Assembly: GCF_016026235.1 (NCBI RefSeq)
Contig: NZ_CP065613.1
Strand: one strand, 5' to 3'
DNA: 64,000 bases
DNA from: Escherichia coli
GTDB lineage: Bacteria > Pseudomonadota > Gammaproteobacteria > Enterobacterales > Enterobacteriaceae
The position numbers were made by a program, and so were the translations under genes. A model generated the notes under the pieces. That model did not search any database. It saw only the letters and a program-made list of their open reading frames with translations, and had not been told where the DNA came from. Below, one piece after another: positions 20,671-25,105 of this stretch; position 1 is the first letter of the stretch; each line of letters begins with the position of its first letter.

Positions 20671-21798
<1,128 letters not shown>

Positions 21799-22016
21799 TT
21801 ATGTTGGCGTTTTCTATTCAGTATAGAAGTCGGAGCGGCTGGGCGAGATGCGGAAGTTCTGGAATGTTTCTTTTTTTGATGATGGTGACTGAAGCAAATT
21901 GGCTACATTTTGCAATGTGACCAGTTGCGTCATAGTTGGCTGGCGGCGAAGAATTTTGACGATTGCGGCATGCAGAAAAAAACGGGTTCAGCTTCAGTTG
22001 ATTAAATGAGGAGTGA

Positions 22017-22404
22017 GAAGTCCGAAACAGGATTCACTGTATAAATAAACAGCCATTTTGTTGAGGAAGGGTAAGATAACGGCGGGTGCCTGAAGCTTTC
22101 CGGTTTCAGGTTTACTCTGAGGTCTGGAAAGATGAAGCCCCAGGAGATATTTCTATCAACCCTGGGGCTGCCACTCCAAACCAGACAATTTGGATGGTAG
22201 TTCCTTCTTCGCATGGAGGCAATATAAACATGCTGACGAAATATGCCCTTGTGGCAGTCATAGTGCTGTGTTTGACGGTACTGGGATTTACGCTTCTGGT
22301 CGGAGACTCGCTGTGTGAGTTTACGGTGAAGGAACGTAATATTGAGTTCAGGGCTGTTCTCGCTTACGAACCGAAGAAGTAGCCGTTGTGCGGGGAGTAA
22401 TCCC
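22017..22404 (+). repeat. hok-type locus, tandem copy 1 (5' part and CDS); its 3' end continues at 23699-23796 after the IS
   Basis: Near-identical to 23824-24290 over both coding and non-coding sequence. Confidence 0.75.
22230..22382 (+). CDS. hokE: Hok-family type I toxin (50 aa), copy 1
   Basis: [50 protein letters not shown], with the Hok single-transmembrane signature. Confidence 0.8.
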
Positions 22405-23698
22405 CTGAGGGATCCCCAGAAAATTTAGTAAACCATTATCATATTGGTATACCGTTGCTGTAGAACTTTCAGCCCTGCGTCAAGTGACAGTGTGTTTAGT
22501 ATGAGTGGAGAATGTCGAATCACATTCTCCGCCAGTTTTAATAACGAGATGACTCGCCTGTGCTTCACTGTATTTGCCTGATATTTATGATGTATCCCTT
22601 TGTTTTCCAGGCTGAAACCGCTTAACCACATAATGATACTGGCTAATGTTGCGATCAGACTCAATACCGTGACCCGCCCGGATGAATGACTGGCACCAAA
22701 CCGTAGTCCAAATCCCCAGCGAGGATTTTTTTCATCCCTGAAATTTTGCTCAATTTGCATTCTACGGCTGTATAATTTCATTACCTGTTTTGGCGAGAAC
22801 TCAGTACTGTTTGTGAAAATAAACCATGGTGATTTCCCGGCAGTACGAGCTTTAGCCGTCACCGATGGTCTGGTTGCTCTTTCCTTCGAGCGTTTAAATC
22901 TACGACCTTTAGGCTTACTTTTATAAAGATAAAAATGCCCTTCATGTTGTGCATTTTTATCTCGACCCAGCAGGCCTTCACCTAAATAAATTGCTGTCGT
23001 TGATGCTTTTGTGCCTGAGTCCGACACCTTTTCCCAGCCATTACCAACATTGTAATAATGATTGCCCAGTACCCGGCAAATATAGGTCCAGCCACGGGAG
23101 CGGAGCTGTTGGAACCATCGCCCCTGAAAACCGGCATCTGTAATAACAATGACATCAGTCCCGGGGGAAAAGCACTCAGCAAGCGATTCCAGAAAACGCT
23201 CATGTACATCTGCATTCGCTGTCTGTGATGATGGAACGACACAACTCATCAACGGTAAAGAACGCCCGTCACATGCCAGGCTTGCCCGCAAAAGCTGAAA
23301 ACGAGAGGCATGATAAGCACTCCAGTCAATGAGTATCACAACACGAGACATTCCCCGCGTAATCTTTTGGGTAATTCGCTGAAAAATGGTGGAAACCTCA
23401 TTTTGCAAATGTCGATTCCCCAACAGTCGATCCACCCGCTTTATTTTGTTTTTAACTGATGCCGTACCGGTTAAATGACGCCCGATACTGGTAAGTGTGA
23501 GGGAAGCGCCATTTATTACAGCATTAGTTGCGTCAATCAGTGATTTTTGACGGTAAAGATGCAAAGGGGCCAGTATATTGTTAAGGAAATTTTGGCATAA
23601 TGAACGTGCAGGCATAGTGGTGATCTCCTTGAAATTGTTAGCACAATCAATTAGATCACATCTCACTATGCCTGTCTTGTTTTCTGGGGATTCCTCAG
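22405..23698 (-). mobile_element. IS4-family insertion sequence, probably IS186 (about 1.29 kb)
   Basis: Imperfect terminal inverted repeats CTGAGGGATCCCCAGAAAA and CTGAGGAATCCCCAGAAAA; flanked by a 10-11 bp direct repeat GAGTAATCCC(C); inserted in a GGGG-N6-CCCC target 22 bp after the hok copy 1 stop; one DDE transposase ORF. Confidence 0.8.
22425..23615 (-). CDS. IS4-family DDE transposase
   Basis: 397 aa from the ATG at 23613-23615 (MPARSLCQNF...). Catalytic-region motifs IDWSA, TDAGF and YSRRMQIEQNFRD resemble IS10-type transposases. The 568-aa ORF in the track is read-through into flanking DNA. Confidence 0.85.
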   Translation of the reverse strand: MPARSLCQNFLNNILAPLHLYRQKSLIDATNAVINGASLTLTSIGRHLTGTASVKNKIKRVDRLLGNRHLQNEVSTIFQRITQKITRGMSRVVILIDWSAYHASRFQLLRASLACDGRSLPLMSCVVPSSQTANADVHERFLESLAECFSPGTDVIVITDAGFQGRWFQQLRSRGWTYICRVLGNHYYNVGNGWEKVSDSGTKASTTAIYLGEGLLGRDKNAQHEGHFYLYKSKPKGRRFKRSKERATRPSVTAKARTAGKSPWFIFTNSTEFSPKQVMKLYSRRMQIEQNFRDEKNPRWGFGLRFGASHSSGRVTVLSLIATLASIIMWLSGFSLENKGIHHKYQANTVKHRRVISLLKLAENVIRHSPLILNTLSLDAGLKVLQQRYTNMIMVY

Positions 23699-23758
23699 GA
23701 GTAATCCCCGCATATCCGGTTGTCAGGTCAGGATGGTAAGGCACCTGCTTTACACTTT

Positions 23759-23796
23759 CGCCCGCGGTCAGTGATGGCTGCGGGCGATTTCGTTTT
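23759..23796 (+). terminator. Stem-loop plus T-rich tract: 3' terminator of the hok copy 1 transcript, displaced by the IS
   Basis: GCCCGCGG / CTGCGGGC stem followed by ATTTCGTTTT. Confidence 0.45.
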
Positions 23797-23823
23797 AAGA
23801 GCAATGATGAGTTTTGCCGACAG

Positions 23824-24290
23824 AAGTCCGAAACAGGACTCACTGTATAAATAAACAGCCATTTTGCTAAGGAAGGGTAAGATAACGGCGGGTGCCTGAA
23901 GCTTTCCGGTTTCAGGTTAACTCTGAGGTCTGGAAAGATGAAGCCCCAGGAGATATTTCTATCAATCCTGGGGCTGCCACTCCGAGCCTCAACAACTCGG
24001 ATGGTAGTCCCTTCTTCGCATGGAGGCAATATAAACATGCTGACGAAATATGCCCTTGTGGCAGTCATAGTGCTGTGTTTGACGGTGCTGGGATTTACGC
24101 TTCTGGTCGGAGAGTCGCTGTGTGAGTTCACCGTAAAGGAACGTAATATTGAGTTTAAGGCTGTTCTCGCTTACGAACCGAAGAAGTAGTCGTTGTGCGG
24201 GGAGCAATCCCCGCATATCCGGTTGTCAGGTCAGAGTGGTAAGGCACCTGCTTTACACTTTCGCCCGCAGTCAGTGATGGCTGCGGGCGA
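23824..24290 (+). repeat. hok-type locus, tandem copy 2 (uninterrupted)
   Basis: Aligns to copy 1 and to the displaced copy 1 3' end at 23699-23796, including the terminal hairpin at 24263-24289. Confidence 0.75.
24037..24189 (+). CDS. Hok-family type I toxin (50 aa), copy 2
   Basis: [50 protein letters not shown]; differs from copy 1 at two residues (D/E and R/K). Confidence 0.8.
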
Positions 24291-24310
24291 ATCGTACCAG
24301 ATGTTGTCAA

Positions 24311-24940
24311 TTAATCGTGTTGGCACAGAGTTATGACTATTTTTTCTTTTATCTGCCAGTGCACAGCAAACATCTCATTCTCACGATGAATGATGACCTG
24401 CTGTTTATTCCAGCTAATTATCTGATAGTCCAGAAAACCTGCATCAGTTTGGATCTCACTTGCCTTAAATGCGCTCTCTTTGGCGGAAAATGCCAGTGTC
24501 AGCGCCAGAGAAAAGGCTAAACCGCAGTCTGCGAGTCGCTCGTGTTCTGCTGGTGTAATAATGTTGTCTGCCAATTCGGTCGCTGTTTGCGCAGAAAAAA
24601 TTTCTTCGATATCAACGCCAATCGGTTGACGGGAAACCACGGCCAATGCCGTAGCCCCGCAGTGGCTAATACTGCCGTATACCTCCGCAGGCCACACCGG
24701 TTGGCGTAGCTCGCCGATTGCGGGCACACATTTATAGCCATATTCCCGCAAGGCATAAACAGCAGCGATCCGTCCGGCTAAATGCTCTGTTTTACGTTTA
24801 CGTCCAGCGTGTTGCAGTTGTGCGTAGTGCGGCAGCCAGAGTAAATCCTGCTCACAAAAATTCGCCGGATCGAACTCAACAAAATGCAGCGTATGTCCGG
24901 CAAAGGGGAGGGAGGTATGCGTAGTTTTCATATCGACCAT
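24311..24940 (-). CDS. entD: 4'-phosphopantetheinyl transferase EntD
   Basis: 209-aa reading from MVDMKTTHTSLPF...; the 256-aa ORF in the track extends upstream into the REP element. Confidence 0.85.
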   Translation of the reverse strand: MVDMKTTHTSLPFAGHTLHFVEFDPANFCEQDLLWLPHYAQLQHAGRKRKTEHLAGRIAAVYALREYGYKCVPAIGELRQPVWPAEVYGSISHCGATALAVVSRQPIGVDIEEIFSAQTATELADNIITPAEHERLADCGLAFSLALTLAFSAKESAFKASEIQTDAGFLDYQIISWNKQQVIIHRENEMFAVHWQIKEKIVITLCQHD

Positions 24941-24967
24941 ATCCGAGACTGATGACAAACGCAAAAC

Positions 24968-25067
24968 TGCCTGATGCGCTACGCTTATCAGGCCTACATG
25001 GTCCTGCAATATATTGAATTGGCAAGATTTTTGTAGGCCGGATAAGGCGTTCACGCCGCATCCGGCA
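24968..25067. repeat. BIME: two inverted REP elements, between fepA and entD
   Basis: TGCCTGATGCGCTACGCTTATCAGGCCTAC and TGTAGGCCGGATAAGGCGTTCACGCCGCATCCGGCA; same architecture as the BIME at 19031-19116. Confidence 0.6.
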
Positions 25068-25105
25068 TGAACGACGCGCACTTTGTCAACAATCTGACGT
25101 TAGCA

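Follow-up and report, generated by a model that had tools for sequence, protein, structure and literature searches.

The hokE/sokE locus between ybdK and entD raises the question of whether a strain of Escherichia coli with two toxin copies at this site is unusual, and of what an insertion sequence (IS) in one of them has done to it. We analysed a window of 64,000 nucleotides (contig NZ_CP065613.1), in which two hokE/sokE units of ~470 bp each stand head-to-tail between these genes. The initial annotation had set this arrangement against the single hokE of K-12 and concluded that the window keeps an extra, potentially functional toxin copy. We consider it very probable that the two units represent the widespread two-copy form of the chromosomal hokE/sokE type I toxin-antitoxin locus, that ISEc60 entered copy 1 through its target preference, that copy 1 is most likely crippled and copy 2 intact, and that the tandem is old. 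The two-copy locus with ISEc60 is real but ordinary and belongs to a known kind of locus. The locus itself, its tandem form and the disruption of hok 3' regions by insertion sequences are all known or routinely annotated.

The description of the region as two units about 95% identical to each other was borne out by alignment. With the IS taken out, units 1 and 2 are collinear end to end and head to tail, with 27 differences over 472 columns (94% identical), and each contains a 50-aa Hok ORF, a leader that matches the Rfam "sok" family and a 3' hairpin. Direct repeats reflect the same arrangement in three pairs, 22016-22182/23822-23988 (96% identical), 22185-22405/23992-24212 (95%) and 23698-23787/24201-24290 (96%). 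The complete locus has been duplicated in tandem, all parts being present in each unit, and the units are joined by a 34-nt linker (23788..23821, plus strand, placed by alignment) that is diagnostic of the tandem allele.

Copy 1 lies in two parts on the plus strand. Its 5' part (22016..22404), delimited by the direct repeats, by alignment to copy 2, K-12 and RM9872 and by Rfam, comprises the promoter region, the mRNA start GGGUGCC at 22084 (Rfam RF01794 match 22084-22238), the leader, the hok-1 ORF and the 5' half of the 3'-UTR hairpin. Its displaced 3' end (23699..23787), recognized from the direct repeat family, a terminator scan and the end pairing in the reconstructed copy-1 mRNA, holds the fold-back element AGGCACCU (23739-23746) and a terminator hairpin (23758-23787, from the terminator scan), after which comes TTTCGTTTTA. 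Copy 2 (23822..24291, plus strand) is uninterrupted, as its Rfam match (23890-24045), its fold and the comparison with RM9872 indicate. Its mRNA start is placed at 23890 by homology and fold, and it continues on the same strand through a 3'-UTR hairpin (24194-24217), a fold-back element (24242-24249) and a terminal hairpin (24260-24291). The consensus terminator scan found no T-run after this terminal hairpin, so the true 3' end of copy 2 is uncertain.

The ORF list gives a 50-aa hok-1 ORF at 22230..22382 and a 50-aa hok-2 ORF at 24037..24189, both on the plus strand. The second differs from the first by D26E and R41K plus five synonymous changes. Pfam PF01848 HOK_GEF matches the copy-2 Hok (E = 6e-8). 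Both Hoks also score against the NCBIfam models for the Hok family and for HokA, below cut-offs that were curated for other paralogues. The hok-1 DNA is identical to the PGAP-annotated hokE (WP_000956467.1) of strain FDAARGOS_943, and PGAP assigns the same protein to copy 1 of RM9872. No coding differences between hok-2 and RM9872 copy 2 (hokE, WP_001612582.1) are visible in the alignments.

Both leaders match Rfam RF01794, with 80.2 and 86.5 bits (gathering score 59). On the minus strand, a predicted Sok-1 antisense RNA gene of 59 nt (22128..22186) and a predicted Sok-2 gene of 60 nt (23934..23993) are placed by homology to the annotated K-12 sokE (2734-2793 of the K-12 locus extract), positional in the case of Sok-1, and by their folds, which consist of a 5' single-stranded tail and a terminator hairpin. 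Because a sigma-70 consensus scan of the locus reported neither the hok nor the sok promoters, these are given only by homology, aided in the case of Sok-1 by inspection. The putative Sok-1 promoter has its -10 hexamer TACCAT at 22194-22199 and its -35 hexamer TTGCCT at 22217-22222, and the putative Sok-2 promoter its -10 at 24001-24006 and its -35 at 24024-24029, all on the minus strand. The hexamers TTGCCT-17-TACCAT are kept in 15 of 15 aligned units.

A leader ORF, the would-be mok, begins with an ATG at 22132 in copy 1 and at 23938 in copy 2. In copy 2 and in K-12 it runs for 83 codons and shares the hok frame; in copy 1 it is 22 codons long, with its stop 30 nt upstream of hok. The copy-1 leader is shorter by 1 nt. 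A private frameshift was considered here and rejected, since copy 1 of E. whittamii and copy 2 of both MOD1-EC7003 and SCPM-O-B-8794 belong to the same allele class, and for this reason the shorter leader is not counted as a lesion. The frame of the leader ORF is not conserved, +1/-1 indels shifting it among alleles. In this respect the window is unlike plasmid R1, where the reading frame of the mok leader ORF is conserved.

Copy 1 had been reported as split 22 bp past its stop codon by an unnamed IS of 1.29 kb, with copy 2 left whole. This holds, and the element is ISEc60 (IS4 family, 1,294 bp, 22405..23698, minus strand), which starts exactly 22 nt past the copy-1 TAG and was identified by its identity to annotated ISEc60, by NCBIfam NF033591 and by its inverted repeats. 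It is 99.2-99.6% identical to elements that PGAP names ISEc60. Its 19-nt terminal inverted repeats (22405-22423 and 23680-23698) agree at 18 of 19 positions, with 0 matches expected by chance. Its intact transposase ORF (396 aa, 22425-23615, minus strand) is identical to WP_001111632.1 of FDAARGOS_943 and scores 360.5 bits against NF033591 (cut-off 152). The 10-bp direct repeat GAGTAATCCC stands on either side of the element, its left copy (22395-22404) in the loop and 3' stem of the 3'-UTR hairpin and its right copy at 23699-23708. When the IS and one repeat copy are removed, the uninterrupted sequence of the O145 strain RM9872 results at the copy-1 insertion site.

An identification of the element as IS186 was rejected, as its ends are CTGAGGGATCCCC against CATAAGCGCTAACTTAAGGG... 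in IS186 and its transposase is not InsL; the two elements have only the target hairpin in common. A 568-aa minus-strand ORF (22425-24131) was likewise rejected as a gene, since it results from reading the 396-aa transposase frame mechanically further upstream, across the linker, part of copy 2 and the 3' end of copy 1. On the hok strand, the terminator scan also reported a terminator-like hairpin inside the IS (22505-22532).

It had further been proposed that the insertion cuts copy 1 off from its 3' end, the part of a hok mRNA with which the 5' end pairs, and the folding results agree with this. The hok mRNA 5' end GGGUGCCU is predicted to pair with the 3' element AGGCACCU. In copy 2 the resulting 8-bp helix (23890-23897/24242-24249) has predicted pair probabilities of 0.89-1.0, and the 404-nt RNA has a predicted fold of -177.8 kcal/mol (z = -7.9). 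The helix also forms in the reconstructed, IS-free copy-1 mRNA and is kept in 15 of 15 aligned units with one G-C to G-U change. The 3'-UTR hairpin UGUGCGGGGA-GUAA-UCCCCGCAUA is present in the consensus structure (columns 306-329). In the predicted transcript that reads through from copy 1 into the IS, the end-pairing helix is absent from the centroid fold, and the pairing partners now lie 1.3 kb farther apart than in an intact unit. Read with the tac/fbi end-pairing model of hok mRNA (PMC9841398), these folds predict that copy 2 keeps the closing end pairing and that copy 1 has lost it, with its Sok gene retained.

From this an account of the locus can be proposed, for which homology and folding supply the ends of the transcripts, the promoters of hok and sok and what becomes of hok-1 mRNA. 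Each unit would specify a hok mRNA of ~400 nt closed by the pairing of its ends, a 50-aa membrane toxin and an antisense Sok RNA of ~60 nt, the promoter of which would overlap the hok ribosome-binding region. Copy 2, with all parts contiguous, is expected to act like any intact hokE. ISEc60 transposed into the loop of a GC-clamped GNRA hairpin 22 nt past the copy-1 stop with duplication of 10 bp, and the comparison of insertion sites indicates that the site was chosen because ISEc60, like IS186, prefers motifs made of a G-run, an AT-rich loop and a C-run. The insertion would shift the fold-back element and the terminator 1.3 kb away, and hok-1 transcripts would probably end inside the IS, near 22532-22545, much as K-12 gef mRNA ends within IS186 (PMC3562002), unable to form the closed, stable full-length mRNA or a latent pool. 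They would still be exposed to Sok, as the copy-1 Sok gene and its putative promoter are untouched. Copy 1 would most likely be crippled as a delayed-killing module and would still supply antitoxin RNA, and single-copy alleles such as that of K-12 would represent alternative states of the same polymorphic locus.

An intact copy 2 is no proof of a phenotype, because the chromosomal hok loci that have been tested gave no post-segregational killing (preprint 10.1101/2025.08.07.668861); the same preprint includes K-12 HokE among control sequences described as toxic in the literature. The hok/sok system of plasmid R1 resembles that of the window in its tac/fbi-closed full-length mRNA, its antisense control and its toxin of ~50 aa (PMC9841398). 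However, it is plasmid-borne and mediates post-segregational killing, which the chromosomal loci tested so far do not.

It is possible, although we are inclined to doubt it, that copy 1 is not crippled and that the truncated hok-1 mRNA is translatable and Sok-sensitive, which would make copy 1 an active toxin gene checked only by Sok. For plasmid R1 it is the mRNA shortened at its 3' end that is open, can be translated and is the target of Sok (PMC9841398). A similar arrangement exists in K-12 gef(hokC)/sof, where IS186 lies downstream of the ORF as ISEc60 does in copy 1; this gene is still transcribed, its mRNA ends inside the IS186 and antisense regulation is retained (PMC3562002). The hok-1 ORF, its ribosome-binding region and the Sok gene are all intact, and the terminator-like hairpin within the IS lies on the hok strand. 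However, a transcript with no closed form would leave no stable reservoir, so that toxin release after Sok decay would be unlikely, and the leader ORF of copy 1 ends upstream of hok. We prefer the reading that copy 1 is crippled.

The location of the IS in copy 1 is ascribed to target preference because both ISEc60 and IS186 have inserted recurrently in such hairpins. All nine ISEc60 sites examined (10 copies) lie in motifs of a G-run, an A,T-rich loop and a C-run, these sites having been found via similarity to the window junction or the IS, with shared descent among the ibs sites. The direct repeats are 10-11 bp at all sites but one degenerate copy. In one plasmid terminator hairpin ISEc60 is inserted in both orientations, and it also sits in hairpins just past ibs toxin genes. 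We found no description of this target preference of ISEc60 in the searchable literature. IS186, whose target consensus is reportedly GGGG-N6-CCCC, occupies the hairpin of hokE in K-12 and, in the opposite orientation, in STEC307; it is also there in strain C1, with an 11-bp repeat, and in SCPM-O-B-9427, where both copies carry it. This amounts to at least three separate insertions. Whether GC-clamped hairpins past type I toxin ORFs (hok, ibs) are preferentially hit by IS4-family elements, IS186 and ISEc60 at the least, is a proposition that we regard as evenly balanced; if it holds, the long-noted association of IS elements with chromosomal hok would be mainly target-driven and not a product of selection.

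Selection for the IS position, by which the loss of the 3' fold-back element disarms the toxin, seems to us unlikely as the explanation in place of target preference. It might account for the repeated, independent insertions into the same hokE hairpin and for the presence of IS186 next to hokC and other Hok/Gef genes. In strain GN03551, moreover, IS150 interrupts the hokE leader at a site different from the hairpin. Targeting of the hairpin cannot account for this insertion, which suggests that the locus at least tolerates disruption. [quoted passage not shown] 2001, cited in PMC3045373). Two uninterrupted hokE copies are retained in ~40% of the sampled genomes, and published tests of chromosomal hok loci detected no killing, so that there is perhaps little to disarm. 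Target preference, our favoured reading, offers a simple mechanical reason for the repeated landing of IS elements 22 nt past hok stops, and the clear hairpin-loop preference of ISEc60, common to IS186, is a small addition made by this analysis.

The frequency of the tandem bears on whether the second copy is exceptional. A 49-nt query containing the inter-copy linker (23780-23828) was found in 1,702 of 5,426 complete E. coli genomes, or in 1,448 of 5,426 by exact-word search, Shigella genomes lying outside the searched collection, and E. whittamii has it as well. Two annotated hokE genes were present in 24 of 60 evenly spaced sampled records and a single intact hokE in about 13 of them. Strains with the tandem include O157:H7, O55:H7, O145, O111 and O103, as well as E. 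coli SCPM-O-B-8794, and outside E. coli it is present in E. whittamii and in Escherichia sp. MOD1-EC7003. A figure of 3,395 genomes, obtained with a 201-nt junction query (>=80% coverage), was rejected as a tandem count because that search joins the 5' and 3' pieces of one copy into one place. About one-third of complete E. coli genomes have IS186 in a hokE hairpin, but these junction counts are upper bounds only, being inflated by hokC/mokC and other Hok/Gef paralogues with IS186 at the homologous place.

Since the linker is widespread and the tandem occurs in other Escherichia species, the tandem is regarded as old and ordinary pangenome content. Hok 'islets' arising by local duplication have been described (preprint 10.1101/2025.08.07.668861). 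The single, IS186-interrupted hokE of K-12 is one of several common alleles and not the species norm, a correction to the view from K-12, as about one-third of complete E. coli carry two units. A neighbour-joining tree of 17 units did not separate copy-1 and copy-2 lineages across species, and the units are mosaic (the two E. whittamii copies, for example, share coding-sequence variants); for these reasons we make no claim on copy orthology or on whether the single or the tandem state is ancestral in E. coli.

It is very improbable, then, that a strain-specific duplication has given the window an unusual extra functional toxin copy relative to a normally single-copy E. coli. K-12 MG1655 does have only one hokE, some sampled records have a single intact copy, and among complete genomes this one alone has both the tandem and this IS. 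However, the linker-bearing genomes, the O157:H7, O55:H7, O145, O111 and O103 strains among them, do carry a second hok unit, as the RM9872 annotation and the sampled records demonstrate, and the tandem extends to other species. The copies differ by 5.7%, far beyond the level of a recent duplication, and copy 2 of the window is 99.8% identical to copy 2 of the O145 strain. The suggestion of an extra, potentially functional copy therefore stands in so far as copy 2 is intact, and fails in so far as it implied something unusual; the survey of single-copy and duplicated arrangements found the tandem to be common. An assembly artefact is scarcely credible. FDAARGOS_943, nearly identical at the locus, does lack 503 bp containing copy 2, but 27 positions distinguish the two copies, more than 1,400 independent complete assemblies have the tandem together with its linker, and the FDAARGOS_943 difference begins exactly where the IS ends, unlike what a collapsed repeat would leave.

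The closest known loci place the window among several states of one site. K-12 hokE/sokE (b4415/b4835) lies at the same ybdK-entD site, and its unit is 95% identical to that of the window, with the same Hok family toxin, antisense gene position and 3' hairpin. As the initial annotation had stated, K-12 has one unit, with IS186 and with no duplicate, against two in the window. Its element, IS186B, occupies the same hairpin and likewise lies 22 nt past the stop, parting the ORF from the fold-back element and the terminator. IS186B measures 1,339 bp and has the 10-bp repeat GGAGTAATCC, against 1,294 bp and GAGTAATCCC for ISEc60 in the window, and the two sites are offset by one base. The RM9872 tandem has the same two units, 34-nt linker and flanks as the window and is annotated as WP_000956467.1 and WP_001612582.1. 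Unlike the window, the tandem allele of O145, O157, O55 and many other E. coli has no IS in copy 1.

Among complete genomes, the hok-1/ISEc60 junction was found only in the window and in FDAARGOS_943, and the RefSeq record of the latter already annotates the insertion. Junction and IS are the same in both, with 1 mismatch in 1,909 nt, and the 3-kb flanks have 0 and 1 mismatches. Window positions 23699-24201 (503 bp), covering most of copy 2, the linker and the 3' end of copy 1, are missing from FDAARGOS_943. The deleted stretch reaches exactly to the edge of the IS, and as its right-hand repeat the strain has the copy-2 version, GAGCAATCCC. This strain shows the next step, in which copy 2 has been lost by deletion flush with the IS end. 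As a separate observation, a plasmid of FDAARGOS_943 carries the type III effector gene ospC2.

The region of Sok recognition has diverged between the units: 9 of the 27 differences fall within 15 columns, with compensatory pairs. The predicted duplex energies of hok-1 and hok-2 with Sok-1 and Sok-2 are -49, -39, -30 and -51 kcal/mol. On a weaker reading, the tandem units may be partly insulated toxin-antitoxin pairs with asymmetric cross-talk, through a specifically diverged Sok recognition region. There is a parallel in the Sib RNAs, which tell cognate from non-cognate ibs mRNAs. The ibs/sib loci belong to a toxin family unrelated to Hok, but like the hokE tandem they consist of small type I toxin units arranged head to tail with a GC-clamped hairpin just past the ORF, and that hairpin, like the one in hokE, is also an ISEc60 insertion site.

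The genes ybdK (20671-21789) and entD (24311-25081), both on the minus strand, flank two hokE/sokE units of about 470 bp, arranged head-to-tail. Copy 1 occupies 22016-22404 and continues past an insertion sequence (IS) at 23699/23709-23787, a 34-nt linker follows at 23788-23821, and copy 2 is a single span at 23822-24291. Once the IS is taken out, the units are collinear and align end to end with 27 differences in 472 columns. Each encodes a 50-aa protein that matches the Pfam HOK_GEF and NCBIfam Hok models (hok-1, 22230-22382; hok-2, 24037-24189), and the two ORFs differ by 5 synonymous changes and 2 conservative ones (D26E, R41K). A leader and a GC-rich terminal hairpin are also present in each unit. 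The IS (22405-23698, 1,294 bp) begins exactly 22 nt past the hok-1 stop codon, and deletion of the element and one copy of its flanking repeat in silico regained the uninterrupted sequence of the O145 strain RM9872. Therefore, the initial annotation, which described two adjacent hok units, the first split at this point by an IS of about 1.29 kb and the second uninterrupted, was confirmed in all details of its observation. Its statement on K-12 was also right: MG1655 carries a single hokE with an annotated antisense sokE, and IS186B lies between hokE and entD. The duplication present in the window is absent from K-12.

Several smaller features of the units were noted. The copy 1 leader contains an ATG-initiated ORF of 22 codons that ends before hok (22132-22200, plus strand); that of copy 2 runs in frame into hok (23938-24189, plus strand, 83 aa), as it does in K-12. 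No conserved mok-like frame was found in the leader, where +1/-1 indels occur among the compared alleles. The TACG context of the Tyr46 codon TAC is kept in both copies (22365-22368, 24172-24175) and is invariant in all 15 aligned units; A-to-I editing of hokE mRNA is reported to recode this position to Cys (preprint 10.1101/2025.08.07.668861). A T-rich run, TTTCGTTTTA, comes after the terminal hairpin of copy 1 (23758-23797 region), which scores as an intrinsic terminator; in copy 2 (24260-24300 region) and the K-12 single copy, the hairpin is followed by AATCGTACC, without a T-run.

The inserted element has 19-nt inverted ends, CTGAGGGATCCCCAGAAAA and CTGAGGAATCCCCAGAAAA (0 expected by chance). 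Its minus strand encodes an intact transposase of 396 aa that matches the NCBIfam IS4 family at 360 bits, and the element is flanked on both sides by the 10-bp direct repeat GAGTAATCCC (22395-22404, 23699-23708). It is ISEc60, being 99.2-99.6% identical to elements so named by PGAP, and not IS186. The insertion point is the loop of a hairpin with a 10-bp stem and a GNRA-type tetraloop, UGUGCGGGGA-GUAA-UCCCCGCAUA, which belongs to the consensus fold of 15 hokE units. IS186B of K-12 lies in the same hairpin, offset from ISEc60 by 1 base, and its 10-bp repeat is GGAGTAATCC. A 568-aa open frame (22425-24131, minus strand) prolongs the transposase frame upstream and stays free of stop codons across the 3' end of copy 1, the linker and part of hok-2. 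This is almost certainly a mechanical ORF; transcription coming into the IS from the right would be read in the transposase frame.

The duplication, which the initial annotation had implied to be rare, is widespread. With a 49-nt query, essentially the inter-copy linker, megablast matched 1,448 of 5,426 complete E. coli genomes, and a more sensitive search that takes in linker variants of 86-90% identity matched 1,702. The 1,230-bp ybdK-entD interval of RM9872 was also used as a query, and 60 records were sampled at even steps down the ranking. Two annotated hokE genes in a span of about 1.2 kb were present in 24 of these, a single intact copy (about 725 bp) in 13, a match broken at the hairpin, like K-12, in 17 and other rearrangements in 6. 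When one genome of each species was scanned for exact words, the tandem also turned up in E. whittamii, Escherichia sp. MOD1-EC7003 and the divergent E. coli SCPM-O-B-8794, whereas E. albertii and Escherichia sp. E1V33 had a single copy. PGAP names both tandem genes hokE in RM9872. Together, the counts, the other Escherichia species and this annotation indicate that the tandem is old, common and already annotated, and is no peculiarity of the window; the allele form is common to about a third of E. coli. According to a preprint (10.1101/2025.08.07.668861), 10% of Hok genes are in "islets" of two to six copies produced by local duplication. A tree of 17 units was mosaic and did not separate copy-1 and copy-2 lineages, which suggests gene conversion; no claim on the ancestral state, single or tandem, was drawn from it. 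Interruption of a chromosomal hok in its 3' untranslated region is well known, and the locus is a new instance of it in which the IS is a different one.

The position of the IS was considered in the light of ten ISEc60 copies at nine insertion sites, two tandem ibs repeats being counted as one site. All nine sites carry a G-run/A,T-rich/C-run motif, and the direct repeats are 10-11 bp except at one degenerate copy. Besides hokE copy 1, the sites are the mocA-yqeC spacer (GGGAAAACCA), the iprA-ampH spacer (GGGATAACCA), a plasmid terminator hairpin loop entered in both orientations on different plasmids (GGGAAAATCCC and GGGATTTTCCC), the hairpin GCGGGGGAAACCCCGC directly 3' of ibs genes for type I toxins, hit in three strains and, in one strain, in two tandem repeats (GGGGAAACCC), and a place already holding an IS186-type element and another ISEc60 (GGTAAATCCC). 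Across these sites, ISEc60 shows a consistent preference for G-run/A,T-rich loop/C-run targets, including terminator-type and post-ibs hairpins. This preference is a modest new point, and ISEc60 is scarcely mentioned in the literature searched.

The target consensus of IS186 is reportedly of the form GGGG-N6-CCCC. In the hokE hairpin, IS186 has its transposase on the plus strand in K-12, lies in the opposite orientation with a C-type loop in STEC307, and has an 11-bp repeat in strain C1. In SCPM-O-B-9427 (L005, 2826-5816), it occupies the hairpins of both tandem copies, and the segment between the two elements (copy 1 3' end, linker and copy 2 5' part) is inverted. Junction queries, whose counts are upper bounds, placed IS186 in hokE in the K-12 orientation in at most roughly 1,500-1,870 genomes, and showed it adjoining hokC/mokC and other Hok/Gef genes too. 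The target preference common to these two IS4-family elements is sufficient to explain the position 22 nt after the stop. A target consensus for IS186 has been published (SaiSree et al. 2001, as cited in PMC3045373). A different route to disruption of the locus is seen in GN03551 (L007, 1176-2617), where IS150 lies in the hokE leader and splits the stem of the terminator hairpin predicted for Sok.

The hok-1/ISEc60 junction was found in only one of 5,426 complete E. coli genomes, FDAARGOS_943, which shares 99.9% identity with the window across 24.7 kb (next best, about 98.6%). There is 1 mismatch in 1,909 nt at the locus; of the 3,000-nt flanks, the upstream one has none and the downstream one has 1. 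This strain (L001, 3616-4999) is without exactly window 23699-24201, 503 bp with the 3' end of copy 1, the linker and most of copy 2. The deleted segment runs from the IS terminus to the homologous hairpin position in copy 2. The repeats are equal in the window, which is the primary insertion state, and unequal in FDAARGOS_943 (left GAGTAATCCC, right GAGCAATCCC), which is derived from it. The loss is likely to have arisen either in two steps, with a second ISEc60 entering the copy-2 hairpin and then recombining with the first, or by IS-end-mediated adjacent deletion. ISEc60 occurs at about 33-35 places in the chromosome of this strain. One of its plasmids has many IS elements along with ospC2 (L026, 1-327), a gene for a type III effector, so the lineage is probably Shigella-like or enteroinvasive, with ISEc60 expansion, and the window probably comes from such a lineage.

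The predicted fold of the copy 2 mRNA (23890-24293) has an energy of -177.8 kcal/mol (z = -7.9), and its first eight bases pair with 24242-24249 with probabilities of 0.89-1.0. This helix is the counterpart of the tac/fbi pairing between the mRNA 5' end and the 3' fold-back element, which in the R1 system holds the full-length hok mRNA closed and inert (PMC9841398). The helix is retained in all 15 units compared, and reconstructed copy 1, with the IS removed, folds into it as well. In the window, an extra 1.3 kb separates the copy 1 3' partner (23739-23746) from the 5' end relative to an intact unit, and end pairing is gone in the centroid fold of the predicted read-through transcript, in agreement with the earlier proposal that the IS separates copy 1 from its pairing partner. 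The hok-1 transcripts could end at a terminator-like hairpin predicted within the IS (22505-22532, plus strand). K-12 gef/hokC would offer a parallel: its mRNA stops within IS186 yet remains under antisense RNA regulation (PMC3562002). The predicted Sok-1 gene and promoter, both upstream of the IS, are unaltered. From these models, we infer that copy 1 would no longer be able to build a stable, latent mRNA pool, yet would still supply Sok, and that copy 2 would be a normal hokE unit. Other chromosomal hok loci showed no post-segregational killing in published tests (preprint 10.1101/2025.08.07.668861).

The divergence between the copies clusters in the Sok recognition region, which is a further modest new point. 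Of the 27 differences, nine are concentrated in 15 columns, in the hairpin recognised by the Sok 5' tail, where G-C pairs take the place of two A-U pairs. For 22-nt Sok tails, the predicted duplex energies were -48.8 kcal/mol for Sok-1 with hok-1 mRNA and -50.6 kcal/mol for Sok-2 with hok-2 mRNA, against -39.2 kcal/mol for Sok-1 with hok-2, via G-U wobbles, and -30.2 kcal/mol for Sok-2 with hok-1. These predictions hint that the two toxin-antitoxin pairs might be partly and asymmetrically insulated.

Rfam RF01794 "sok" matches reached the gathering score on both leaders (22084-22238 and 23890-24045, plus strand). The matches to this "sok antitoxin" model lie on the hok-sense strand, opposite to the annotated K-12 sokE, and stop at the hok ATG; what the model appears to depict is the hok leader, not Sok. 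The other Rfam matches in the window were the ES036 (CssrF) sRNA close to the entD-fepA junction, where the entD open frame has its 5' end (24990-25031, minus strand), an rnk leader (58172-58280, minus strand) and a tRNA (419-492, plus strand).
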